Part shown: positions 1-40,568 of the stretch, piece after piece
How positions within the stretch are numbered: the stretch's first letter is position 1
Layout: every line of letters begins with the position of its first letter
Source: a virus
Taxonomy: Duplodnaviria; Caudoviricetes
IMG/VR virus record: IMGVR_UViG_3300030104_003667
Location: 1-40,568 of that record
Length of the DNA stretch: 40,568 nt
Reading direction: 5' to 3' (one strand)
Position numbers and translations under genes: made by a program
The notes under the pieces: model-generated
What the model was told of the DNA's origin: nothing
Database searches by the model: none
Seen by the model: only the letters and a program-made list of their open reading frames with translations

Positions 1-256
1 AGAGAGGCAGAGATCGTGAGGAGAGTGATAAGTGAACTGACTCCTCAGCAACGAGCACAGTTGCCAGGTGGTGCTACTACTGAAGACTTCATGCAGGCAT
101 TTGCCACGTACCTAGAGACAAAGGCTAAGACCATAGATCACTCGGCCGTAGAGACAGAGGCACCACTGCTTCTGGTCTATCAAAAAGCAAGGCGTGGAGC
201 AGAGATCACTCCAGAGGAACGAGTAAAGGCAGAAGAGCAAGTTCAAGAAATTACTT
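1..256. repeat. Terminal direct repeat (circular assembly overlap), copy 1
   Basis: 1-256 aligns without gaps to 40313-40568; mismatches at 78, 123, 126, 133 and 144. Confidence 0.95.
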
Positions 257-2457
257 CAGAAGTACCACCGGAAAGACTTAAAAAGATCCGGGAAGAAATT
301 GCAGCAATTGAGGAGACTGCTGACGAGGTAGCTGACCTTGGAGAGTTTAAACCGCCTCCTGATGCGGACCTAATGATCGTCATGAAAATGGGTGATAATT
401 TAGGCAGTCCTGTCAAACAAGATTTTCAAAAAAAATTTAATGAGCTGCTTCAAAAAAATGAGATTACTGACATCGAGTGGGGAGACAAGACACTTCAGCT
501 TGCCGATTTAGGCGAAGGTGTACCCGTTGATCTGGGTAAAAAAGAAGCAGTAGACGCAGTCGAAAGCTTAGGTACAGCCGCCAGACAGTTAGACGAGCCA
601 GTAGGAACCCCTGAGCCAGACATAAATTACAACGAGGGTGATTTTGTCAACACTGATCCAGCACAGATAGAGCTGCCAGAAGCATTGCTGATTGACAACT
701 TAGAACAGATTGGAGAACAAGCTGGCACGCAAAAGGGAGGAGTCTACAGAGACAAGGCAACAAACATCGAGTACTACGTCAAATTTCCATCTAACGCAGA
801 CCAGGCAGTAAGTGAGTTTGTTGCTGCTCAGCTTTACCGTTTGTTTAACGTACCTTTTCCTACTACCACGTTAGTGGCTAACAAGGAAGGTAAATTTATC
901 GGAGTGGCCTCACAGATGATACCAGGAGCAAAGATGATTACTCCTGATCAATTTAGGGCCCTTCCTGATGACATCAGACAGGATTTTTTAAAACATGGAA
1001 TTATTGACATGTATCTTGGAAATAGGGATGTGGTTGGAAATGCTCCTAATTTCAATCTCGTACTTCATCCTAGCGGTAAAGTTATGAGGATAGACCCTGG
1101 AGGCGCGTTGCTATATCGTGCTCAGGGCGGCTACAAACAACTAGACAGTGAGTTTAGTGAAGTATCAAGCATGGTAGATCCTACAGTTGCTCCTACTACG
1201 CACCAGGTGTTTGAGACATTTAATCCAGCGTATGCCTCAGAGTCAGAGTCTTTCAACCTCAACCAGTTTTATCGAGGAAACGAGGATGCTGCCATAGAGC
1301 TGTTTTCTACGCCGCAGCAAATGATCGATGACGTCGTCGATTCGGCTGGCATAAGAAATGCCTCGATTATAAAGAGACAGCTTTACGAGAGGCGCATCAA
1401 GCTTACTACCAACAATGCTTTTACCGAGGCGGCACAAAAGGCTACTGAAAAGCGGGGGGTCCCCATACAAGCATTTTCAGCCAGTAAAGCTGAAAAAATT
1501 TTGCAAGAGGATTTAACAGCAGATCCTAAGACTTTTACAAAAAAAGAAAAAGACGCAATTGCTGCCTACACAAATCATAGTGACAATTTTAATCAATACA
1601 TGCGTCTTGGTCCTAAGAAGGCGTCAGAAGCTTTTAGTGGTGCTGCTCTAGACATGTACAATCAAATGAAGGTACATCTTACAAAAGCAATGAAAAAGTT
1701 GCAGACTCCTCAAAAGATCGTAGTATATCGAGGGGGCACGCCTTACACCTTGTTTAATAAGATAAAAGGAGTCAAGGGTGTCAAGTTGACAGACGAGACA
1801 GATCTTAAAAATGCCAGAAAGTTGGTTGGCGGTGTCGTAAGCTGGCGTCAATTTGCATCTACGTCTTTGTACGTCAACAAAGCAAACCAGTTTAATGGTG
1901 CAGGAGATATACTGCTAAGAATTGACTTGCCAAAAGGTCTTAATTTCATGTACTCTCAAAAGCAGCCGTTCTGGTCATACGGTATAAAAGAATTTGAGAT
2001 ACTGCTAGCACCTAATCAAAAGTACGTGGTCAAACACGCCGGCAGATTTAAGGGCCAGATGGTCATTACCCTAGAAGCTTTGCCTCCTGGTAAAGAGGTA
2101 CCGGCCACAGTCACCAAAGAGACTGCCATAAAAATTGCCCAGAAGCACCGAGAATCACCTGATAACGGTGTAGCTGACTCCCAGGATGCACTGCCCTACG
2201 AAGATGTAGCTACGGTACAAGAGACATTAAAACAGCACACTCCTGAAAAAGACTTGACTGTACTACAAGATGACATTGCTGAGATGGAGACACAGCTGAA
2301 TGCGGAACTTGAAAACCTAGACGAGGCCGTAGCAGCAGGCATAAGAAAAGAACTTGAGAACGTAGCTGCTGAGGGAGATCAAGCAGTTGCTTTTGCACAA
2401 GAACTACACGATGCAGCCAAAGCTGGAGCCGTGTGCCTCAGAGCGAGTGCTGCATGA
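1..2457 (+). CDS. C-terminal part of large putative internal virion/ejection protein (true start 39341, ~1142 aa) with kinase-like and ADP-ribosyltransferase domains
   Basis: In frame with the ORF from 39341 across the repeat; kinase-like motifs GGVY..YYVK..E..NRDVVG..N..RID; ART motifs VYRG, FASTS, EFEILL; located among internal virion genes. Confidence 0.85.
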   Translation, partial: REAEIVRRVISELTPQQRAQLPGGATTEDFMQAFATYLETKAKTIDHSAVETEAPLLLVYQKARRGAEITPEERVKAEEQVQEITSEVPPERLKKIREEIAAIEETADEVADLGEFKPPPDADLMIVMKMGDNLGSPVKQDFQKKFNELLQKNEITDIEWGDKTLQLADLGEGVPVDLGKKEAVDAVESLGTAARQLDEPVGTPEPDINYNEGDFVNTDPAQIELPEALLIDNLEQIGEQAGTQKGGVYRDKATNIEYYVKFPSNADQAVSEFVAAQLYRLFNVPFPTTTLVANKEGKFIGVASQMIPGAKMITPDQFRALPDDIRQDFLKHGIIDMYLGNRDVVGNAPNFNLVLHPSGKVMRIDPGGALLYRAQGGYKQLDSEFSEVSSMVDPTVAPTTHQVFETFNPAYASESESFNLNQFYRGNEDAAIELFSTPQQMIDDVVDSAGIRNASIIKRQLYERRIKLTTNNAFTEAAQKATEKRGVPIQAFSASKAEKILQEDLTADPKTFTKKEKDAIAAYTNHSDNFNQYMRLGPKKASEAFSGAALDMYNQMKVHLTKAMKKLQTPQKIVVYRGGTPYTLFNKIKGVKGVKLTDETDLKNARKLVGGVVSWRQFASTSLYVNKANQFNGAGDILLRIDLPKGLNFMYSQKQPFWSYGIKEFEILLAPNQKYVVKHAGRFKGQMVITLEALPPGKEVPATVTKETAIKIAQKHRESPDNGVADSQDALPYEDVATVQETLKQHTPEKDLTVLQDDIAEMETQLNAELENLDEAVAAGIRKELENVAAEGDQAVAFAQELHDAAKAGAVCLRASAA

Positions 2458-8452: not shown

Positions 8453-9124
8453 ATGCCTAGCGATCTTCAGATAACGAACATCCGTGACCTAAATAATGCT
8501 AATTCTGCAATTAGTATAGCTTCAGATGGTCAGGTTACTATTGCACAGAATAATCCTACGATTACACTACACGCAACTGGTGATTCTAGTAGCACAAACA
8601 CGACTTTTCCGCAAGGACACATTATTAAATCTCAAACACATAACATAAATTTAACAGGTGGTACTGCAATTCAAAGTGTGAATGAAACGGATTTTAATTA
8701 CGATGCAAGTAATTCAACTTCAACAATGGTATTTACTCCAATTCAAGAAATCACAAATCTTATTGTTACCATTCAAATGTGTCTTAGGCACGGTACGAAT
8801 TGGCAATCTCATCTTTTTAGATGTTATTATAAAATAGGAAGTGGTAGTTGGACGCAATTTTTTCTTGAAGGTTGGAATTGTTTCAATAGTAACACAAATG
8901 TTAGTAATGGGATGTTTATGGAGGCACGAACAAGCAGGAGACATAACTCTGGGTTTAATAGAGGTACTGATACTGTTTCTATTAAATGGACTCACGAAGG
9001 GCATTCTAGTGGAAATTTTCTTGTTCCAAATTCTTACAATATAGACGCCTCGTCTGTTGATTTAACTTCAACTCAAATTAGTCAATTCGGAGGATTGATT
9101 ACTATAAGTGAGGAGAAAGTTTAA
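8453..9124 (+). CDS. Tail fibre/receptor-binding-like protein (low GC)
   Basis: N-terminal MPSDLQITNIRD..AISIASDGQVT, FPQGHII motif; AT-rich. Confidence 0.6.
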   Translation: MPSDLQITNIRDLNNANSAISIASDGQVTIAQNNPTITLHATGDSSSTNTTFPQGHIIKSQTHNINLTGGTAIQSVNETDFNYDASNSTSTMVFTPIQEITNLIVTIQMCLRHGTNWQSHLFRCYYKIGSGSWTQFFLEGWNCFNSNTNVSNGMFMEARTSRRHNSGFNRGTDTVSIKWTHEGHSSGNFLVPNSYNIDASSVDLTSTQISQFGGLITISEEKV

Positions 9125-9456
9125 TGATAAATCTTAATGATGCAATTCAAGCATTAAATATAAAAAACTTTGCTGTAAAAGGTGATGTTATTACAGAAGA
9201 ATCTTTTAATCAAACTTATCGTGAATTTAATGTTCAAGGTAAAGTTTCTTTGGAACTTGGGGAACCCACGATAACGTGGTCACAAGTAAAAGCAAAATAC
9301 GATGAGTTAAAATCAGAATACGATGCCAAAAAATACCAACGTGACCGAGCAATGGCTTTTGACCCAATTCCTGAACAGCTTGACCAGATTTACCATGATA
9401 TAGATGGGTGGAAAGCTCGCATTAAAAGCGTAAAAGATAAGTATCCGAAGCCATGA
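9124..9456 (+). CDS. Small fibre-associated chaperone-like protein
   Basis: EYDAKKYQRDR...EQLDQIYHDIDGWKARIKSVKDKYPKP. Confidence 0.65.
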   Translation: MINLNDAIQALNIKNFAVKGDVITEESFNQTYREFNVQGKVSLELGEPTITWSQVKAKYDELKSEYDAKKYQRDRAMAFDPIPEQLDQIYHDIDGWKARIKSVKDKYPKP

Positions 9457-18166: not shown

Positions 18167-19951
18167 TCACTTTATTTCTCCCCAGTTAGGTCCTATCTCA
18201 ACGTCGACCTTGAGTGGGAGAACAAGTGGTACACAAGATTCCATGACTTCCTTGTAGACCGCAGCTTCTTTCTCAGTGTGCACCGAAAAGTCTAGCTCGT
18301 CATGCACGGTCACATGTGGCACGACTCCAATGTCATGCAGATCGATCATTGCCTTCTTGATCATGTCAGCAGATGATCCTTGAATCAAGGCGTTAAGTGC
18401 CTTGTAGTTAAAATCGCGAGGCAGGTGTCGGTGTCTGCCCAGTAGTGTTCTGATGTGGCCCTTGTGATTGATGGCCATCGTGCACTCGTGCGCGAGCTGA
18501 CGAACGAAAGGCACTCGCTGATGATATTGCTCAAACAGTGGTTTTGCATCATCTAAGGACATGTCTAAGGTCTGTGAGAGCTTATGTAGACCCATGCCAT
18601 AGAACATACCTAAGTTGATTGTCTTTGCCTGCTTCCGTTTGATCTTGGCCATGTCAGCAACCATCTGATGGAAGTCAGTGTCTGGGTCGTCAAGGTACAT
18701 CTGCACGGCGTCTTGTGATCCCTTGAGCTTTCTCAAATAAGCATAGTGCATCAACACCTTTGGTTCCTGTTGGCTGTAGTCGAGACAAGCCCACTTCATG
18801 CCCTCTTCTGGTAAAAACAAGGACCTGATCATCGGACCCCAGTACTCGTCACGTGCAGGTATCTGCTGCAGGTTAGGTGTAGAGCTGCTGAACCTGCCTG
18901 ACCTGGTACCGTCAGAGTCTTTACGCAGCGAGTGAAACTGAGCATAGATACGACCCTTGTGTGACATCTTGAGGCACAGACCCTCGATAAAGTCACGTCG
19001 CATCTTGTTGATCTTGCGATAGTGTGCAATTTTCTTAGCAAACGGGTGCGTGTGATTGTTTAACCAGTATGAAGTAAAAGACGGATTGCCTTTTTCAGTC
19101 TTTGGATACCAGATCTTGAGTCGATTAAACGCTTCTGCTAGTTCCAGGGCTGACCATGGCGACACCTTGAACTCTGCCTCCTGATAGATGGCAGACAGAG
19201 TCTGATCCTCTTCCTTTGACGTCTCGATTGCTAGCCTCTGCGCCTTGTCAAGGTCAATTGGCACACCCTTGAACCTCATGTCTAATATTACCCGCAAAAG
19301 TTTAGACTCAAGCTCAAAAATCTTCCACAGACCCTTGTCAGAGATAATTTTTTCTTGCTTTTGCCAGATCTCCAGTGGCAGTTGTGCGTCTGCCTCGGCG
19401 TAGGGTCCCACAAACCTGGCAGGCATCTTCCACAGACCTGACTTAGGATCTACACCATGTGCCTGGGCTGCCTCGTTCAACAGAGTCTCATCTTTTTGCT
19501 TGCCTAGATAGTAACCAGCCAAAGCACCAAGACTGAAGCTGCCTTGCCTCTCTTCATTTATCAGGGGTTCGGCAACTTGGATGTCGATGAGACTTCCACC
19601 AACCTCGATGCCAGTGGCCCTGAGCCATTCAAGATCGTAGAGCAAATTTGCTCCAACCTTTGTTTGTGTTCCTCCAAGTAGAGCTCTGGCCCATGCGAGG
19701 ACAGCGTCACGGTCAAGGTTATCTCCTCCTTCGTGCCCGATGGGGAAATAGCCTTTAAAACCAGTGTCCGTTGCCACTGAGATTCCAACGAGTCTTCCGT
19801 CATTTCGTACACCTCCTGGTCCTTGTTGTAATAAGTTTGGGTCGCATGTCTCGACGTCTAATCCAATCAGCTCTGCACTACTGAGATCAGGAAGTTCTCT
19901 GGGCGGCAGCCACTTACTTCTTGGCTGGAACAAACTGAATTGTTGTGTCAT
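18167..19951 (-). CDS. polA: Family A DNA polymerase with 3'-5' exonuclease (594 aa, Leu762 type)
   Basis: DVET exo motif; SGRFSSSTPNLQQIP; DYSQQE; KTINLGMFYG; VHDE; start reassigned to ATG 19951. Confidence 0.95.
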   Translation of the reverse strand: MTQQFSLFQPRSKWLPPRELPDLSSAELIGLDVETCDPNLLQQGPGGVRNDGRLVGISVATDTGFKGYFPIGHEGGDNLDRDAVLAWARALLGGTQTKVGANLLYDLEWLRATGIEVGGSLIDIQVAEPLINEERQGSFSLGALAGYYLGKQKDETLLNEAAQAHGVDPKSGLWKMPARFVGPYAEADAQLPLEIWQKQEKIISDKGLWKIFELESKLLRVILDMRFKGVPIDLDKAQRLAIETSKEEDQTLSAIYQEAEFKVSPWSALELAEAFNRLKIWYPKTEKGNPSFTSYWLNNHTHPFAKKIAHYRKINKMRRDFIEGLCLKMSHKGRIYAQFHSLRKDSDGTRSGRFSSSTPNLQQIPARDEYWGPMIRSLFLPEEGMKWACLDYSQQEPKVLMHYAYLRKLKGSQDAVQMYLDDPDTDFHQMVADMAKIKRKQAKTINLGMFYGMGLHKLSQTLDMSLDDAKPLFEQYHQRVPFVRQLAHECTMAINHKGHIRTLLGRHRHLPRDFNYKALNALIQGSSADMIKKAMIDLHDIGVVPHVTVHDELDFSVHTEKEAAVYKEVMESCVPLVLPLKVDVEIGPNWGEIK

Positions 19952-20402
19952 ATTGTATTGCTGTGTTGTGAAGTTGCCATCTTCGGTTTCCTGCTTTGTT
20001 TCCTGTCCACAGATTGTATGGTCTGAGCCAATCAGAATATTCCTCTGCAAACACGATGCCCTTACAGCCAGTGTTGAGCAGCAGCTTGACGCAGGTCCAG
20101 CAGGGACTGGTCGTAATGTACGCAGTCTCGATTGCCTGCGTGTCCTTGCACTGCAGCAAGGCGTTCTGTTCTGCATGAATTGCTTGACAGTGCTCGAGGC
20201 CCTCGCCTGACTTATACTTGGCACCAGGACAGGGGTTGTCGATACAGTGTTCAAGGCCAGAGGCCACACCGTTGTAGCCTGTTGCTAGCACGTGCCTGAA
20301 CTTGTCAACCAAGATACAACCTACCCGGCGTCTGGCACAGGTAGACCTGAGACTGACAAGCTTAGCCATGCTGATAAAGTAAGTATCTAGGTCAGGTCGC
20401 AT
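19914..20402 (-). CDS. dCMP deaminase
   Basis: RSTC.RR.VG, TGYNG, HAEQNA, SPCWTC Zn motifs. Confidence 0.93.
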   Translation of the reverse strand: MRPDLDTYFISMAKLVSLRSTCARRRVGCILVDKFRHVLATGYNGVASGLEHCIDNPCPGAKYKSGEGLEHCQAIHAEQNALLQCKDTQAIETAYITTSPCWTCVKLLLNTGCKGIVFAEEYSDWLRPYNLWTGNKAGNRRWQLHNTAIQYDTTIQFVPAKK

Positions 20403-21162
20403 AGCTCCATAATGTGTCTACAAATTGATCAGGATCTGTGACCTCAGCACTAGGAAGAATCCACGAGTCTGCGTGCTTGTTCTGAAGTGCAGGTTCGGTG
20501 ATGATTTGAAATGACTTTTTGACATTTTCCTCGTACAAGTGCAAGCTGCCAGCAGTCAAGTACAGATTACCAAGTTCAATGTCGTGATCGATGGCAACCT
20601 CGTCGATGCTCTTGAGATACAGCAGTATGTAGCGACTGATCATGCTCATGTTGAACACGTCATACGGCCAGCCAAGCCAGATGTCTGAGGATCGCATGGT
20701 GTCGAAGCAGTGTAGCCGGTTGTTTCTGATCATAAACTGCAAGGACACGGTACATGGTACATCTTTTGTGTCCTCAGGGCGCTCACGCCAGATGTTGATC
20801 ACAGCCTGTCTTGTCTCGTAGTCTTTTGCCAAGGTCTTTGCTATGTAGGGGATCTGATCTATGACCTTAGGACCATACGCACCATGAAAGGTAATCCCGT
20901 CATCTGAGTAGTCTACAATCTTAGGTGCATTCTTTCTGATGGTACTGACCCGGTTGTCTCCTGACAGGATCCACGCAGCCTCTGCAGCCATAAACTTGTA
21001 GCTTAGTTTTCTTGCAGCAATCGACATGACTGGCATGTTCATGTCTACGATGGTCTGAAAACCTAACAGTTCCCGACACTTCATGAACCTAGGTGCAGTC
21101 TGCTGGCCATCCTTGATCAGATGGCGAAGCGTGTTGACCCAGGTGTTATTTACTAAATGCAT
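20392..21162 (-). CDS. Thymidylate synthase superfamily protein, probable dCMP (hydroxy)methylase type
   Basis: TRQAV, DVPCT catalytic Cys, MRSSDIWLGWPYD (Asp where TS has PFN Asn), GSLHLYE; start reassigned to ATG 21162. Confidence 0.85.
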   Translation of the reverse strand: MHLVNNTWVNTLRHLIKDGQQTAPRFMKCRELLGFQTIVDMNMPVMSIAARKLSYKFMAAEAAWILSGDNRVSTIRKNAPKIVDYSDDGITFHGAYGPKVIDQIPYIAKTLAKDYETRQAVINIWRERPEDTKDVPCTVSLQFMIRNNRLHCFDTMRSSDIWLGWPYDVFNMSMISRYILLYLKSIDEVAIDHDIELGNLYLTAGSLHLYEENVKKSFQIITEPALQNKHADSWILPSAEVTDPDQFVDTLWSYAT

Positions 21163-22156
21163 TTTTGATAAGCTCCTTGTAGACGATAGTGTGACCGAAC
21201 CGCTTAGCCCACGAGGGATGTGGCAGCTCGTAGTGGATAGGGACATCGTGCCGCTTGAGAATCGAAGCAGCCTTCTTGCCCATGGGAACAACCTTCAAGG
21301 TTGGTTTGATCTCTAGCAGCTCTACCAGAGAGGGATCGACATTGCCATGGTGGTCTTGGATGTTGGTCCACATGAAGTCACACTCCTCAAAGTTGTGCTC
21401 ATGCATGATCTGTGTCAGGTACAGACTAGAGTTGCGGTACTCGTAGAACGGCCAGAATAACTCACGATGCTTGGGATTGACCTGCTCTCCCACGACCAGA
21501 TATTCTGCAGTCTTGATGTGACCAGCAATGTTCCAGTAGTGATAGTTGAGAGCCTTGTCCCACTGATGTCTCTGCCAGTCTGCCGCTGTGTCTGCCAGCT
21601 GGGTGACAAAGTGCTTGAGATTAGCCCAGTCGTTAGTGCCATATCTGACTGTGTCAGGACGCCACCTGATGCCTCCGTTGGCAATCAACTGATCGATGTA
21701 CTGGCCTGAACCTTGCCACGACGTGCCACCCCACCAGAGGTCGACATAAAGCTGGGCAACCTTGCTGATGTCATCGTACATCTCTTCTCTGACACCTTTC
21801 AGCTTCTCATGTCTGGCAACGACCTCCTCAGCATTGTCAGGTGTACAGTAGACATAGATTGCACCAAACTTACGAGCAATCCTGTCTGCCATCCTGCCTT
21901 GCAGAGGCCACGAGGAACCACCACGGTAAGCATGGGCGTACACAGCCTCTGTCGGCCACCAGCGATCAATGACAAATGGTTTACCTGTCAGCCACACTTG
22001 CCTGGCAGCATGTCTGATGGCTGCCGTGTGATAGTCAAAGATACGAGGTTTCCAGCGATACGTCAGGTGAGTGTAGCCAGCGTCTAACTGACTGCAGATC
22101 TCACGTGCAAGAGTAGTCTTGCCAGTGCCGTCTGGACCTTCTAAAATATAGATCAT
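21146..22156 (-). CDS. dNMP (thymidylate-like) kinase fused to a uracil-DNA-glycosylase-fold domain
   Basis: ILEGPDGTGKTTLA and IDRWW (kinase); LVVGEQ..WPF..WTNI..VVPMGKKA..LPHPSW (UDG superfamily). Confidence 0.8.
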   Translation of the reverse strand: MIYILEGPDGTGKTTLAREICSQLDAGYTHLTYRWKPRIFDYHTAAIRHAARQVWLTGKPFVIDRWWPTEAVYAHAYRGGSSWPLQGRMADRIARKFGAIYVYCTPDNAEEVVARHEKLKGVREEMYDDISKVAQLYVDLWWGGTSWQGSGQYIDQLIANGGIRWRPDTVRYGTNDWANLKHFVTQLADTAADWQRHQWDKALNYHYWNIAGHIKTAEYLVVGEQVNPKHRELFWPFYEYRNSSLYLTQIMHEHNFEECDFMWTNIQDHHGNVDPSLVELLEIKPTLKVVPMGKKAASILKRHDVPIHYELPHPSWAKRFGHTIVYKELIKNAFSK

Positions 22157-22173
22157 AGTCTTCTTTCTTTGAA

Positions 22174-22414
22174 GCCGCGGCACGACTGCACCCCCATAGA
22201 CTAGAAACCGTAATTGGTTAACTATTCCGTCCAGTGACCAGCCTTAATCTGACCGCGGCAAATGTTAGCACTGCTGCCACCTCGTCTTAGCCTATGAGAG
22301 GAGCTCGGAGGTTAAACACCTGGTCTTGCCACCTGCCTAAGGAACACAGGTGTAGGTAGAGCCACATCGGTGTTTGTGAGTGCCGACGTGCCAGGCGAAT
22401 CTGGACAGCAGTGC
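22174..22414 (-). ncRNA. Candidate two-domain structured RNA in the intergenic gap
   Basis: 9-bp stem GCACTGCTG/CAGCAGTGC and 7-bp stem GCCGCGG/CCGCGGC, each closing multiple hairpins; G-U pairs favour the minus strand. Confidence 0.55.
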
Positions 22415-22419
22415 AGATA

Positions 22420-22773
22420 TTAAGTGAATGGTGCCAAGTCAGGCGGCTTCCAGCCATCTGGCTTGACAATCCCCAGCTTGCGCTGGTCTGGATTGTACCC
22501 GCGAACTTTCTCCATGTTTGCTTTGTGGACCTCTTTCCATGCGCCGTCAAAGTCAAACCCATGAAGGAGAGCAGTGCCGACCGCGAGGTACACCAGATCG
22601 ATCAAGGCGTCAAGCTTTTCCTCTCTGCTAGAGGCAGTGATATACTCCTCTAGTTCCTCAGTCATGTGAGCAATCCGATGAGTGCTCAATGATGGAGGCA
22701 GCATGCGCCTTGGGCCCTTGTAATTCAGGCCAAATTTATGCAAAAACTCGTCTACGTCTTTAGATGCTGTCAT
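22420..22773 (-). CDS. MazG-like/PRA-PH all-alpha NTP pyrophosphohydrolase
   Basis: EELEEY, DALIDLVYLAVG, EVHKANM.K, IVKPDGWKPPDL. Confidence 0.88.
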   Translation of the reverse strand: MTASKDVDEFLHKFGLNYKGPRRMLPPSLSTHRIAHMTEELEEYITASSREEKLDALIDLVYLAVGTALLHGFDFDGAWKEVHKANMEKVRGYNPDQRKLGIVKPDGWKPPDLAPFT

Positions 22774-23617
22774 AGCTTGGATCCAATCTCTGCCAGTGTT
22801 CACTGCTGCCCCAGGGTTGTTCTTGATCTCTCAACGGATCAAACTTTCTGACATTGTTTCTTCCTTGAAACGTGCAGCGCCACAGACAGTTGCGACTGTG
22901 CTGCGGATACAGTGGTGCAAAGATCGTGGACAGATAGTTCGTATCATAATATGCTCGCAGCTCATCGAACACTGTTCTCTGCTCGTGTGTCAGAGCGTCA
23001 CGATAGTCCTTGATACTGGCAAATGTGCCATGCTGAGATTCGATCGTGTAGCCAATGTCCTCTAACGTAGCACCAAAGGCCTCATACTTCATCTCGTTGA
23101 CGTGGTTGCCAGCAGCTCCAACCGCAGGATCCCAGCAAGGTGTACTGACAAACAAGACACCTTCGTCGTCTAGCAGCTCACTGAACTTGGTCAGCATGCG
23201 ACGGCAGTGGTCTGCCTCGACATGTTCGACAACCTCAAAGCAGACAATCACATCTAGCTTTGATGGCAAGTCTTTCAAGGACAGGTCACAGACGTCTGTC
23301 TTGCTGTACAGCTCGTCTGGCTTCCAGCTTGCATTGGCAAACTGAGCTGGTGTCGTGAGTGGTGTGACGTCTACAGCACCATACCACGCAGGAGCCATGC
23401 GGCTCGAGTGCAGCAGCTTTGCCAGTGGCATCTCTTTGCCACAACCGACGTCTAGGATCCTAGATTCTTTGTAACGCATTGACGTGCCCAGGAACTTGAC
23501 CACGTGGGTCCACCTGAGACAATGTGCAATGTAGTCTCGATGCAGAAAACCTCTGTCCTCTGCGTTGTCGACTGACAGAAAAGTCTTGTCGACTGCCTTA
23601 CCTGAACGATTAGCCAT
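22760..23617 (-). CDS. Class I SAM-dependent methyltransferase (UbiG/small-molecule type)
   Basis: ILDVGCG, CFEVVEHV, LFVSTP; no DPPY/NPPY or PC motif of DNA MTases. Confidence 0.88.
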   Translation of the reverse strand: MANRSGKAVDKTFLSVDNAEDRGFLHRDYIAHCLRWTHVVKFLGTSMRYKESRILDVGCGKEMPLAKLLHSSRMAPAWYGAVDVTPLTTPAQFANASWKPDELYSKTDVCDLSLKDLPSKLDVIVCFEVVEHVEADHCRRMLTKFSELLDDEGVLFVSTPCWDPAVGAAGNHVNEMKYEAFGATLEDIGYTIESQHGTFASIKDYRDALTHEQRTVFDELRAYYDTNYLSTIFAPLYPQHSRNCLWRCTFQGRNNVRKFDPLRDQEQPWGSSEHWQRLDPSYDSI

Positions 23618-23837
23618 GTCTGGTCTCTTCGATTAAGCCCTTGTTGATCAAGGGACCTTTATAGTAAGTCAGGAGACGCTTGGCCTCCTGTTTGGATTTG
23701 ACATCTAACTGGATCTGCTGAATAAGTTCAGTCTCAGTGATGGGTGACTTTGCCTCTACAATATTGAGGATAGTCCTCGCCTGCTTGGGAAGACTATCCT
23801 CTGAGGCTTTCACAAAAGTGAAAGTCCGGTTCATCAT
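23610..23837 (-). CDS. Small putative winged-helix protein
   Basis: LPKQARTIL..KQ..RLLTYY..LI.KGLI; paralogous to the C-terminus of 24934-25509. Confidence 0.65.
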   Translation of the reverse strand: MMNRTFTFVKASEDSLPKQARTILNIVEAKSPITETELIQQIQLDVKSKQEAKRLLTYYKGPLINKGLIEETRHG

Positions 23838-24820
23838 GCAGCGTACTCCATGGCGAGTTGAAGAGCAGCACGCTTGGTCACAGCACGTCCGCCAAACCAG
23901 GCAGCCTGCAAGGAACTGTCACGATCTCTGCCAGCTTTATGGTCGACATAGTATGTCACTGCGTTGAGTGCAGACCACCAGGTGCCCTCTGACAACTCAG
24001 CACCTGGCTGAGTACGAATGCACGTAAACACGTTGTCCATCGTACGATTGAACTGTGTCCGGTCGAACTCCCACTCAGAGGGATTGTCCTTGGTCTTGTT
24101 GGCATCTTTGATGGCCACCGGATTAAAGATTCGAGCAAGATAAGCATTGAGCTGCTTCTCTGTATACTCATTTTGTGTGAGGATCTCTGCTTGCTGACGA
24201 AAATCATCCAGCTGATTTGATGCCAGACCCAAAGCCTGTTCAGCCGCTTCCATAACGTCACCGTCCCATGCCTTGACATGAGGAAATCTGAATCGGTCTC
24301 CAGCACCACCGAGAGCAGCAACCAGAGTGTTGTTGCAGACCACCCGGATGGGTGTGAACATGATCGTCATGGCCTTCCCCCAAATGTGAGGATGGGCAAT
24401 CAGCAGATGTCCTTGGACCTCATCGCCGCCTGGCAAGGTGAATCCCTTACGTATGTTGGCTAGACCCCAGACCTGCCTTCCACCATTCAAGGATCCGGCC
24501 GTCTCTAGTGTCATGTCGCCTGCTTTGACGAACTTATCGAAGAACTCGAACACCTCAGCATTCTGTACTGGCACGTATGACTTGCCAGCAGGACCAAGCA
24601 CCTGGTCGTCTGAGTCTCTGACCAACATGAAATAATCGTCAGTCGTCAGCATGTCTGTCGAGTTGGCAGACTGCACGTGTACACGTCTCTTAGAGACAGT
24701 CCAATCTAACTGAGCTGCCATGAGCATCTCAGCAGGGGTCAGATTATCATCGACCTTCTGACCGAGGCCGTGCCATGGGGTCTGTCCCGCATAGGCCATT
24801 GTTTCTACTGCATCAGGCAT
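23834..24820 (-). CDS. DUF932/DUF945 phage-plasmid protein
   Basis: VETMAY..PWHGLG; Y.PVQN..F.FF; ETAGSL..GR.VW; TPIRVVCNNTL; W.ALNAVT.Y.DH. Confidence 0.9.
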   Translation of the reverse strand: MPDAVETMAYAGQTPWHGLGQKVDDNLTPAEMLMAAQLDWTVSKRRVHVQSANSTDMLTTDDYFMLVRDSDDQVLGPAGKSYVPVQNAEVFEFFDKFVKAGDMTLETAGSLNGGRQVWGLANIRKGFTLPGGDEVQGHLLIAHPHIWGKAMTIMFTPIRVVCNNTLVAALGGAGDRFRFPHVKAWDGDVMEAAEQALGLASNQLDDFRQQAEILTQNEYTEKQLNAYLARIFNPVAIKDANKTKDNPSEWEFDRTQFNRTMDNVFTCIRTQPGAELSEGTWWSALNAVTYYVDHKAGRDRDSSLQAAWFGGRAVTKRAALQLAMEYAA

Positions 24821-27090: not shown

Positions 27091-28369
27091 CTGGAGACCC
27101 AGGCCATATCAGTTGCCGCTTTGGAAGTTTTTAGAGGGCGGAGGTAAGAGAGCAGTCTGTGTCTGGCACCGTCGTGCCGGCAAAGACTTGTGCAGTATCA
27201 ACTGGGCCGTGGTCTCAGCATTGCAGCGTCCGGGCCTGTATTGGCACTTGTTTCCTACCTACAACCAAGGTCGCAAGATTGCTTGGGACGGCATGACCAA
27301 GGACGGCCGTGCTTTTCTTAATCACTTTCCAGAAGAGTTAGTCGAAGCCAAGAACAACACCGAGATGCGGTTGACACTGAAGAATGGGTCAATCTTCCAG
27401 GTGGTAGGCACTGACAACGTCGACCGGCTGATAGGAGCAAACCCAGTCGGTGTCATCTTTTCTGAGTACTCCGTCCAAGATCCCAGAGCCTGGGACTACA
27501 TCAGACCAATCCTTGCCGAGAACGACGGCTGGGCATTATTTATCTTTACAGCCAGGGGTCGCAATCATGGTTATGATCTTCTGAACATTGCCAAGAGGAA
27601 TGAGACGTGGTTTCAGCAAGTCTTATCGGTGGAGGACACTCGAGCCATTCCCATGTCAGCAGTTGACGAGGAACGCGCGGCGGGAATGCCAGAGGAGATG
27701 ATCGAGCAAGAGTTCTTTTGTTCGTTTGATGCTCCGCTAGTAGGGGCATACTATGGTAACGCGATGGCACGGCTGTTAGCAGACAAGCATATTACTAAGG
27801 TTCCTTACGAACCCTTGTTAGACGTACACACGTCCTGGGACCTAGGTGTCGGTGACTCGACAGTCATCTTGTTCTTTCAGTTGCAAGGCAACGAGATCAG
27901 GATCATCGATTATTATGAAAATCAAGGCGAGGGCCTAGCACATTATATCAAGGTGCTGCGTGAGAAAGAATACGTATATGGTGACCACTACGCGCCACAC
28001 GACATCCAGGTCAGAGACTTCAGTACTGGCAGATCTAGGTTAGAGATTGCCAGGGAGCTCGGGGTCAGGTTCAGGGTCGCGGCCAACCTGAGGATTGACG
28101 ACGGCATCGAGGCAGTCAGGTCCATCTTGCCAAGGTGCTACTTTGACGAGGACAAGTGCAGCCACTTGATTGAGGCCCTGAGGCAGTATAGAAAAGACTA
28201 TGATGAGAAGCTGAAGGCCTACAAGGACAGACCTTTGCATGACTGGACCAGTCACCCGGCAGACGCCATGCGGTACCTGGCACTGAGTGTGAGAGACCGG
28301 ATTAACAAGAAGATTTCTAACTTGCCAAGACAAGCAGAACTTGAATACGGGATCTTTGACGCATATTAG
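27068..28369 (+). CDS. terL: Terminase large subunit
   Basis: WHRRAGKD Walker A, IFSE Walker B, WDLGVGDST and HPADAMRY nuclease motifs. Confidence 0.95.
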   Translation: MKLRVPVDWRPRPYQLPLWKFLEGGGKRAVCVWHRRAGKDLCSINWAVVSALQRPGLYWHLFPTYNQGRKIAWDGMTKDGRAFLNHFPEELVEAKNNTEMRLTLKNGSIFQVVGTDNVDRLIGANPVGVIFSEYSVQDPRAWDYIRPILAENDGWALFIFTARGRNHGYDLLNIAKRNETWFQQVLSVEDTRAIPMSAVDEERAAGMPEEMIEQEFFCSFDAPLVGAYYGNAMARLLADKHITKVPYEPLLDVHTSWDLGVGDSTVILFFQLQGNEIRIIDYYENQGEGLAHYIKVLREKEYVYGDHYAPHDIQVRDFSTGRSRLEIARELGVRFRVAANLRIDDGIEAVRSILPRCYFDEDKCSHLIEALRQYRKDYDEKLKAYKDRPLHDWTSHPADAMRYLALSVRDRINKKISNLPRQAELEYGIFDAY

Positions 28370-28811
28370 AGACATAGAGAAGTCAGATGTTGTCCATGTT
28401 GTAAGATTAGTTAGACAGATAGTAAAAGAATCTAGCTTTTCACAGGTCCTGTTTGATGATGATCATTGCGCCGTCAACGTAGAGCAGTGGATAAATCACG
28501 ATGCTTATTACGTTCAAGGTGCCTTTGATTCGAATAAAAACATTTTTGCTGTTTACGCCGGTTATATCACGCAGTACTATTTCTCAAAAGACCTTGTCGC
28601 ACACGATTTTTTGATGTACGTGGAACCCGAGAGACGCGGTGGTTACACAATTGTAAGGTTAGTCAAGAATTTTGAGTCGTGGGCAAAGTCTATGGGAGCC
28701 AAGGAGATAAGGCCAGGCACGTCAACAGGTATAAAGTCTGAGATGAGCAAGAAACTTTACGAGGCACTTGGCTATAAATTTACAGGACACAACTTTATGA
28801 AAAGGAGTTGA
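28341..28811 (+). CDS. GNAT-family acetyltransferase
   Basis: MYVEPERRGG acetyl-CoA motif A; KLYEALGYK motif B. Confidence 0.85.
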   Translation: MNTGSLTHIRDIEKSDVVHVVRLVRQIVKESSFSQVLFDDDHCAVNVEQWINHDAYYVQGAFDSNKNIFAVYAGYITQYYFSKDLVAHDFLMYVEPERRGGYTIVRLVKNFESWAKSMGAKEIRPGTSTGIKSEMSKKLYEALGYKFTGHNFMKRS

Positions 28812-39341: not shown

Positions 39342-40568
39342 TGGCAGGACTCACCTTTCAAAATAAGACTAAAGGCAGTCAATTTTTTGACAACTACGGC
39401 CTAGACTTCTTGTCACCGACAAACGAGCAGGTCGTAGATGCCGCCGCAACAAGGGGCTGGCGTTGGACCGGTACTGACTCAGTTGCTCGTATATCTGAAA
39501 TTCAACGAATTAGAAAATATGCTGATGCCTCTCAAGAAGAGCGTGAAAGTGTTTTTTCCGAAAAGTCTGCTTGGTTGTTAAAAGGTGCCAGGACTGCCCA
39601 CAAAGTTCCTTTTATAGACCTCGATAATTATCCTGATTTTCAAGAGTCAGATGTCGAGAATATACCTGCAGAGCAAGCAAACCTTAAATACGGCATCAAG
39701 GGCCACCTTCAGTTTCACGAGCCAGTCAGTAACCTAGAGGCACACGTCTTACATCAAAGAAAGCAAGAAGAGCTTCGCTACAACTATATCTTAGAACGTG
39801 CTAAGGGAGGACAGTGGTGGGCAGGATTTGGAATTGAGCTGGCCGTCGGTATTTTAGACCCTATTGCACTACCTTTAATGTTTGTACCACCCTTAGGTGC
39901 ATCTAAGGTTCTTGCCAAGTTAGGATGGCAAGGCAGTCGCTACGGTAGACGAGCAGTCACCGGTGCACTAGGAGGTCTGTATGGATCTACTGCCTTAGAA
40001 CCACTTATTTACGCTGCTCACAAACAAGAGCAAGCAGAGTACTCAGGATTTAATTCACTGACGAACATTGCCTTTGGTACAATTGGCGGCTCTATCTTAC
40101 ATCTTGGCGGTGGAGCAGTTGCTGATGGTGTGAAATACGTCAGAAAGAAAAGACACGTAGCTTCGGTAGATACTGCAGTCAAGCAGATGGCGGCAGGCAG
40201 GTCAGTTGAGGTAGAACCTATCGCAAGAGGTTCAGAGGAACCTGATGCAGGAGTCACGTACTTAGATGACCTGTCAGAGGACATCCCGGCAGTACGTCCT
40301 GACGAGGCAGTCAGAGAGGCAGAGATCGTGAGGAGAGTGATAAGTGAACTGACTCCTCAGCAACGAGCACAGTTGCCAGGTGGTGCTACGACTGAAGACT
40401 TCATGCAGGCATTTGCCACGTACCTAGAGACAAAAGCCAAGACCGTAGATCACTCAGCCGTAGAGACAGAGGCACCACTGCTTCTGGTCTATCAAAAAGC
40501 AAGGCGTGGAGCAGAGATCACTCCAGAGGAACGAGTAAAGGCAGAAGAGCAAGTTCAAGAAATTACTT
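39341..40568 (+). CDS. N-terminal part of the ~1142-aa putative ejection protein (continues into 1-2457)
   Basis: TAATG coupling; open to the window end; Gly-rich hydrophobic segments (GFGIELAVGILDPIALPLMFVPPLG); same frame as ORF 16-2457. Confidence 0.85.
   Translation, partial: MAGLTFQNKTKGSQFFDNYGLDFLSPTNEQVVDAAATRGWRWTGTDSVARISEIQRIRKYADASQEERESVFSEKSAWLLKGARTAHKVPFIDLDNYPDFQESDVENIPAEQANLKYGIKGHLQFHEPVSNLEAHVLHQRKQEELRYNYILERAKGGQWWAGFGIELAVGILDPIALPLMFVPPLGASKVLAKLGWQGSRYGRRAVTGALGGLYGSTALEPLIYAAHKQEQAEYSGFNSLTNIAFGTIGGSILHLGGGAVADGVKYVRKKRHVASVDTAVKQMAAGRSVEVEPIARGSEEPDAGVTYLDDLSEDIPAVRPDEAVREAEIVRRVISELTPQQRAQLPGGATTEDFMQAFATYLETKAKTVDHSAVETEAPLLLVYQKARRGAEITPEERVKAEEQVQEIT
40313..40568. 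repeat. Terminal direct repeat, copy 2
   Basis: Matches 1-256 with 5 substitutions. Confidence 0.95.

Follow-up and report, generated by a model that had tools for sequence, protein, structure and literature searches.

In the 5-hydroxymethylcytosine (hmC) pathway of phage T4, which comprises the dCTPase gp56, the dCMP hydroxymethylase gp42, the kinase gp1, the deaminase cd and the alpha- and beta-glucosyltransferases, a deoxynucleoside monophosphate (dNMP) is modified and then phosphorylated, and the canonical deoxynucleoside triphosphate (dNTP) is removed. The 5hmC carbamoyltransferase cassettes likewise combine a thymidylate synthase (TS) homolog bearing Asp177 with an enzyme that transfers a group to the hydroxyl (PMC8670742). 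In the 5-methylcytosine (5mC) pathway of Xp12 and PaMx74, described with the mSCD deaminases, genes for a MazG-like enzyme, a TS homolog with Asp177 and a deaminase are adjacent and lie near the gene for a family A DNA polymerase, PolA (bioRxiv 2024.12.05.627091). A gene set that fits the T4 logic, in a similar neighborhood, is found in a 40,568-nucleotide stretch of viral DNA (Duplodnaviria; Caudoviricetes; IMG/VR record IMGVR_UViG_3300030104_003667), here called the window, in which six minus-strand genes spanning 23617 to 18167 encode an S-adenosylmethionine (SAM)-dependent methyltransferase, a MazG-like pyrophosphatase, a dNMP kinase fused to a uracil-DNA glycosylase (UDG)-fold domain, a TS homolog, a dCMP deaminase and PolA (Pfam, PHROGs). 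An original prediction, made by a model from the sequence, had described this co-oriented, mostly overlapping run and read it by T4-like logic as the source of a modified pyrimidine; its gene content and order are confirmed, and that logic fits the enzyme set. We favor, with a probability of about 0.5, the reading that hmC replaces cytosine in this phage and that the methyltransferase, which resembles HEN1, would then O-methylate it to 5-methoxymethylcytosine. What is observed directly is which genes are present, the folds of their products, the residues of the active sites and how the genes are linked; the chemistry is what we infer from these.

The identity of the base is indicated by the TS homolog (20392..21162, minus strand), which carries a dCMP 5-hydroxymethylase signature. 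Its residues correspond to TS positions as D134=143, C137=146, T138=147, S158=167, D160=169, D168=177 and R118=126′; Asp177, Asp169 and Cys146 are each present in 117/117 distinct TS homologs and Asp143 in 116/117. Published rules assign dCMP selection to Asp177, associate an acid at position 143 with hydroxymethylation, and treat Asn169 as a mark of hydroxylases (PMC13326640). At positions 143 and 147, T4 gp42 has Asp and Thr like the window homolog, while Xp12 has Asn and Pro. The Asn169 of the 5-hydroxy-dCMP synthase RB69 gp48 is absent, the residue being Asp in the window and in all 117 homologs, and 5-hydroxycytosine or 5-methoxycytosine was rejected as the product because Asp169 is kept. 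Also absent is Asn177, the mark of canonical ThyA and of dUMP hydroxymethylases (with His147 in ThyA), the window having Asp and Thr at these positions, and the protein scores far under the ThyA family cut-offs. Among solved structures, the CMP hydroxymethylase MilA is the closest match (PDB, 4e-22), and in that alignment the window enzyme, unlike MilA, keeps Ser167 and Arg126′, residues that favor deoxyribose (PMC5175136). Together Asp143, Asp169 and Asp177 argue against ThyA, a 5-hydroxy-dCMP synthase and an Xp12-type methylase, which leaves cytosine as the base most likely to be modified. Although identity to T4 gp42 is 28% over 78 residues, the window enzyme has the same residues at 143, 147, 169 and 177, and the cassette very probably makes 5-hydroxymethyl-dCMP, the precursor for hmC synthesis. 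The predicted modified pyrimidine is thereby supported and narrowed to a cytosine derivative made via 5-hydroxymethyl-dCMP, of the T4 gp42 type and not the 5-hydroxymethyldeoxyuridine type of SPO1.

The candidate novelty of the pathway lies solely in the methyltransferase step. The enzyme (22760..23617, minus strand; 285 residues) is a class I SAM methyltransferase (Methyltransf_23, 4e-12, Pfam), and its structural model has a predicted local distance difference test score (pLDDT) of 92. The structural neighbors are near-tied, with CmoM at Z 18.5, ChlM at 17.7 and HEN1 at 16.7 (root-mean-square deviation (rmsd) 2.6, 185 residues aligned, 21% identity). In a profile comparison of the catalytic half HEN1 ranks first, with UbiG close behind. 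The LEVIEH motif of HEN1 aligns with FEVVEH, pairing E796, E799 and H800 with E128, E131 and H132, and among non-gap rows of 150 representatives E128 is found in 146/147, E131 and H132 in 147/147, and H172 in 147/149. This near-invariant histidine follows an STP motif outside the stretch aligned with HEN1, and by position it is a candidate equivalent of the fourth HEN1 ligand, H860. The window enzyme thus shares with the HEN1/HENMT1 2′-O-methyltransferases the class I fold, ExxEH, STP and a later His; unlike them it lacks RNA-binding domains, has no recognized Pnkp partner, and stands in a dNTP-synthesis context. In HEN1, E796, E799, H800 and H860 hold Mg on the ribose hydroxyls (PMC10781085). 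Against the bacterial Hen1 family TIGR04074 the protein scores 17.5 bits, the cut-off being 340, and judged by sequence it resembles HEN1 without being a member of that family.

The DNA_methylase and N6/N4 Pfam families gave no match to the window methyltransferase, and the Cys of its STPC is Asn or Ala in relatives; together these argue that it is not a C5, N4 or N6 DNA methyltransferase. It likely represents a phage-specific family, predicted to act as an O-methyltransferase on hmC. The family comprises 329 clusters at 50% identity (E up to 1e-30), and the ten look-alike clusters listed in the Atlas are 95-100% viral. A scan of genome contigs returned three loci: the longest, L173, holds the full cassette, the remaining pair are short, and none revealed a cellular context. 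One relative (P0244) is a natural fusion of the methyltransferase to MazG (PRA-PH), confirmed by Pfam, a single case. In another (P0135) the N-terminus is weakly UDG-like (hhalign probability 19%; 5.4 bits compared with 3.1 for the best of 500 shuffles).

The survey of gene neighborhoods that the original prediction had proposed was anchored on the TS homolog (best 80 of 121 loci, in 69 of which the upstream sequence extends for 3.5 kb or more) and on the methyltransferase (best 80 of 198 loci). The methyltransferase lies near the TS in 61/69 TS-anchored loci, the kinase in 69/69 and the UDG fusion in 56/69; after clustering at 90% identity, 42/48 clusters have the methyltransferase. Conversely, a TS was found in 66/80 methyltransferase-anchored loci, most of the other 14 appearing to be short on one side, and all 64 of the TS partners that were parsed carry Asp143, Asp169 and Asp177 while spanning 23-92% identity to the window TS. 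The methyltransferase hence stays with a TS of the hydroxymethylase type. It pairs with three distant TS lineages, and methyltransferases from two distant TS lineages fall within the main methyltransferase clade (FastTree, no formal test), suggesting that the gene tracks hmC as a product rather than a single block of genes. Methyltransferase and UDG domain occur together in 55 loci, the methyltransferase alone in 6, the UDG domain alone in 1, and neither in 7 (uncorrected for kinship).

Where the methyltransferase is missing, other enzymes may take its place. In one locus whose TS is 52% identical to that of the window (L114), a carbamoyltransferase confirmed by Pfam occupies the methyltransferase slot (L114:5232-7025). 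Carbamoyltransferases modify the hmC hydroxyl both in DNA and in hm-dCTP (PMC8670742), and by its gene content this is likely a 5-carbamoyloxymethylcytosine phage. In the window a SAM methyltransferase would play the corresponding role. In three further loci (L138:4820-7268, L153 and L160:10970-12001) a glycosyltransferase (GT)-like, virus-only family, phrog_14998, stands beside the same TS clade with the methyltransferase absent. This GT-like gene is a lead only, with T4-Gluco-transf in 40% of one Atlas cluster and no Pfam match. L138 and L160 belong, with L114, to the eight TS-anchored loci that lack the methyltransferase. L138 and L153 additionally carry a C5-DNA-methylase-like gene. Neither the carbamoyltransferase nor the GT-like substitute was found alongside the methyltransferase in the methyltransferase-bearing loci examined. 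The window itself has no recognized glycosyltransferase or hmdU kinase among 50 open reading frames (ORFs) scanned with PHROGs, and when T4 beta-GT, GT-like proteins and carbamoyltransferases served as tblastn queries no match was recognized, which bears out the same observation in the original prediction.

Cultured relatives carry the same cassette. In Stenotrophomonas phage AXL3, gp31-gp27 correspond to five of these genes, the kinase-UDG fusion among them, with their order kept, and the TS has the same key residues. Pseudoxanthomonas phage PW916 has the cassette as in AXL3, and both are siphoviruses; their TS homologs are 44-45% identical to that of the window. Across AXL3-type loci, 26/27 contain the methyltransferase and a hydroxymethylase-type TS, and the remaining locus ends early. 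AXL3 DNA was cut by 2 of 37 restriction enzymes, TasI and Tru1I, which have A/T sites, and the 35 enzymes with G/C sites were resisted (PMC7504290). The modification was left unknown in that study, which read the genes as thymidylate synthase and kinase and reported a separate ThyX. HTVC200P (L005) and HTVC119P are T7-like pelagiphages with the TS and kinase; Asp143 and Asp177 were read for HTVC200P only, and the DNA of both is predicted from these genes to contain hmC, though the gene is annotated as a thymidylate synthase. Observed-to-expected ratios of palindromes average 1.07 for 4-mers and 0.91 for 6-mers and are uninformative because an unmodified control is absent. GATATC, the site of EcoRV, which cuts hmC DNA, is absent from the window (5.5 expected), AXL3 and Xp12, an absence that is not significant after 62 tests.

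Given hmC, O-methylation of its hydroxymethyl group is somewhat favored. A fairly unlikely alternative is that the base is plain hmC, as in T4gt, and that the methyltransferase acts on RNA 3′ ends like HEN1, on a metabolite or on a protein. HEN1 does act on RNA diols (PMC10781085), and TS homologs of the same clade occur without the methyltransferase in 8/69 loci and in HTVC200P. Among the 35 enzymes that fail on AXL3 DNA, only PdmI/XmnI and XbaI (1 site) partly cut hmC DNA in another laboratory's table; nearly all of these enzymes thus fail on hmC DNA, and plain hmC explains nearly the whole pattern. XmnI partly cuts hmC DNA (PMC7653180) and its isoschizomer PdmI leaves AXL3 uncut despite 21 sites, a weak hint that the AXL3 base is bulkier than hmC, weak because the 5mC phage Xp12 resists XmnI too and the laboratories differ. 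Plain hmC fits less well with a methyltransferase that stays with an Asp143/Asp177 TS across distant lineages, is fused to MazG in one case, and is replaced by a carbamoyltransferase in L114, and an RNA target fits poorly with the low score against bacterial Hen1.

It is less likely still that the methyltransferase acts on another atom of the modified cytosine (methylation at N4, for example, would yield N4-methyl-hmC, which is isobaric) or that its substrate is a deaminated product, for instance 5-hydroxymethyluracil (hmU). The linkage evidence is silent on the atom, and N-methyltransferases are numerous among the structures that match almost equally well. On the other side, the metal-ligand-like set ExxEH...H points to hydroxyl activation, and the enzymes that substitute for the methyltransferase all act on the hmC hydroxyl as far as they are described.

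Improbable, too, is a pathway of the Xp12 type, in which the TS would make 5-methyl-dCMP, the deaminase would turn 5m-dCTP into dTTP, and the genome would be fully 5mC. The neighborhood of an Asp177 TS, deaminase, PRA-PH and PolA includes tested 5mdC producers (bioRxiv 2024.12.05.627091), and no second TS was recognized in the window. The closest phage match of the window deaminase (58% identity), in S28-C10 (L006), adjoins a TS with Val143 and Asp177 (L006 6479-7678) that is predicted from these residues to be of the 5mC type. The window TS, however, has D143/T147 and not N143/P147, is 27% identical to that of Xp12, and belongs to a cassette whose methyltransferase has no homolog found in Xp12. 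In Xp12 a DHFR gene adjoins the TS, whereas searches of the window and of 164 loci turned up no homolog of DHFR. This fits a hydroxymethylase, because the hydroxymethylase reaction regenerates tetrahydrofolate. Restriction data point the same way: KpnI fully cuts 5mC and hmU DNA (PMC7653180) but leaves AXL3 uncut despite 13 sites, which argues against plain 5mC or hmU, and AXL3 also resists Eam1105I, while Xp12 is cut fully by KpnI and partly or fully by the isoschizomer AhdI. Very improbable is a plain dTMP supply, or a modification on the thymine side (hmU) that leaves cytosine normal. The genes are annotated as thymidylate synthase and kinase, and read so in the AXL3 paper (PMC7504290), and AATT and TTAA enzymes cut hmU DNA as well, so that hmU might accompany a modified C. 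Against this reading, the window TS has Asp at 177 and Thr at 147 where Asn and His would mark ThyA, hmU DNA (SP8) resists about 8% of enzymes compared with 35/37 for AXL3, and the separate ThyX of AXL3 speaks against it; the plain supply cluster that the original prediction had set against its own reading is contradicted by the TS residues and the AXL3 resistance.

Several observations weigh against 5-methoxymethylcytosine. HEN1 ranks third by structure, its Z of 16.7 barely above the lower rows, and the leading structures are a mixed set, of which CmoM and ChlM are methyltransferases for carboxylates. ExxEH is present in UbiG too, and H860 lies outside the HEN1 sequence alignment, so that H172 is matched to it by position. 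HEN1 acts by chelating a vicinal diol, and hmC has none. The rule for position 143 is a correlation, from which Xp12 differs by Asn alone. The methyltransferase is not required, five of the eight TS-anchored loci that miss it have no recognized substitute, and no homolog of it was found in the pelagiphages HTVC200P and HTVC119P; the loci are mutually related, so the counts overstate independence. The AXL3 methyltransferase is only 30% identical to that of the window, the XmnI hint compares two laboratories and isoschizomers with Xp12 likewise resistant, and in the accessible literature no base analysis of AXL3 or window phage DNA was found.

Under the favored reading, 5-methoxymethylcytosine, the remaining enzymes find plausible places. 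The MazG-like/PRA-PH dNTP pyrophosphatase (22420..22803, minus strand, starting at GTG 22803 or ATG 22773; PF01503, 9e-12) resembles DR2231 (2e-7), has the acidic metal motif, and is predicted to remove dCTP and dUTP, converting them to monophosphates. dCMP would then be hydroxymethylated by the TS homolog, phosphorylated by the kinase and incorporated by PolA (18167..19951, minus strand; 594 residues with a 3′-5′ exonuclease; PF00476, 3e-63). The deaminase (19914..20402, minus strand; PF00383, 2e-18), with Zn-binding HAE/PCxxC motifs, is predicted to turn some of the dCMP into dUMP, from which the host would make dTMP. E128, E131, H132 and H172 would hold a metal and activate the CH2OH group for the methyl from SAM, and this capping would more likely take place on a free nucleotide than on DNA, given the MazG fusion and the location of the gene amid those for nucleotide-pool enzymes. 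The polymerase scores 320 bits against the 500-bit DpoZ cut-off and no PurZ was seen, and a Z-base system was rejected. Compared with T4, the window has a compact podovirus operon with PolA, in which MazG-like and TMK-like proteins replace gp56 and gp1, no glucosyltransferase was found, and a methyltransferase and UDG-fold domain are added.

The fusion protein (21146..22156, minus strand; PHROG 761, 5e-14; YorR, 4e-13) has an AlphaFold model with pLDDT 94, in which a TMK/YorR-like kinase occupies residues ~1-200 and a UDG fold residues ~199-337. The latter has no Pfam, PHROG or NCBIfam match, but it matches family-4/5 UDGs by structure (1l9g, Z 11.8, rmsd 2.9, 134 residues aligned, 199-337), and the glycosylase fold in the original prediction is borne out. 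Its motif residues, including an acid of motif A and a His of motif B, are conserved (G224 and D/E225 in 42/44, N266 in 39/44, H314 in 40/44, P315 in 44/44), though the domain is degenerate or missing in some relatives. Family-4 uracil-DNA glycosylases carry four Fe-S cysteines; this domain has one Cys, and the set is not present. By analogy with the UDG domains borne by polymerases of T-modified phages (PMC13697223), it probably removes deaminated or misincorporated U or hmU. In one phage group (L060-L067:~8907-9392 and L004:15392-15880), a free-standing second small protein directly follows the methyltransferase, and that of L004 is annotated as a G:T/U glycosylase.

Operon junctions overlap by 8-44 nt, the sole exception being the 263-nt gap between MazG and kinase (22157..22419); the extended 5′ ends given by the ORF caller for kinase, TS and PolA are unlikely starts. 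A structured RNA had been placed in this gap, and the comparison with Rfam, folding and relatives does not support it. No Rfam covariance model matched 22157-22419 at gathering score or with E up to 10, and the folding z-score is -1.87 for the whole gap and about 0 for the core, no better than shuffles. The core of ~155 nt (22263-22419) is common only to two near-identical relatives, L007 and L008; the sole hint of structure, among three core sequences, is a single hairpin pair that changes from A-U to G-C by compensation. A 93-bp hairpin insertion (22170-22262) with GCCGCGG-type inverted ends is strain-variable and possibly a small mobile element: it is missing from L007 and L008 and also from contigs of the runs X5 and X12, and parts of it occur in those runs with other flanks. 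The gap sequences from 13 further relatives fail to align, and in many relatives there is no gap. A 16-nt core pattern matches only the two near-identical phages, and a 17-nt insertion pattern was rejected as chance, since its 8 matches are similar in the pattern itself only.

The window is a whole contig and a complete genome of ~40.3 kb, as indicated by a terminal repeat of 256 bp (98% identity, at 1-256 and 40313-40568) that makes it circular or terminally redundant. Head, tail and terminase genes are of podovirus type (PHROGs), and seawater metagenomes from two further studies contain contigs that match 21500-23700 with few differences; the source is a podovirus-like marine phage. Upstream of the cassette, and outside its core, lie an overlapping 75-residue ORF (23610-23837, minus strand) and an overlapping DUF932/TIGR03299 gene (23834-24820, minus strand), both missing from many homologous cassettes. 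A large virion-region protein (16-2457, plus strand), whose start may lie across the circular junction, has an ADP-ribosyltransferase domain (PF03496, E 1.5e-17, residues 496-677) that to us is reminiscent of the T4 Alt-type injected enzymes. A GNAT acetyltransferase (28341-28811, plus strand) immediately follows the large terminase.

The TS-deaminase-PRA-PH-PolA neighborhood is known from virome contigs with modified C, and of 90 such deaminases only 7 attacked hmC, all linked to predicted 5mC enzymes (bioRxiv 2024.12.05.627091), so the hmC half of the pathway is known in kind; the hmC core is known, and the methyl cap is the new element. In the accessible literature, including PMC13229309 and PMC12707154, no report of 5-methoxymethylcytosine as a phage DNA base was found. 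A wider picture can be offered tentatively, at rather less than even odds: a widespread group of podoviruses and siphoviruses from the sea, fresh water and soil may replace genomic cytosine with 5-methoxymethylcytosine, made before replication on hm-dCMP or hm-dCTP by a metal-dependent, HEN1-like methyltransferase, with the kinase-fused UDG-fold domain proofreading deamination products. If true, methylation would constitute a third route for capping hmC, beside sugar and carbamoyl, and add a new letter to viral DNA. A small neutral cap might evade ordinary restriction enzymes as well as enzymes that target hmC or glucosyl-hmC, and would supply an explanation, so far missing, for why the DNA of AXL3, a candidate for phage therapy, resists restriction. 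A methyltransferase specific for hmC could also be used for labeling in 5hmC sequencing.

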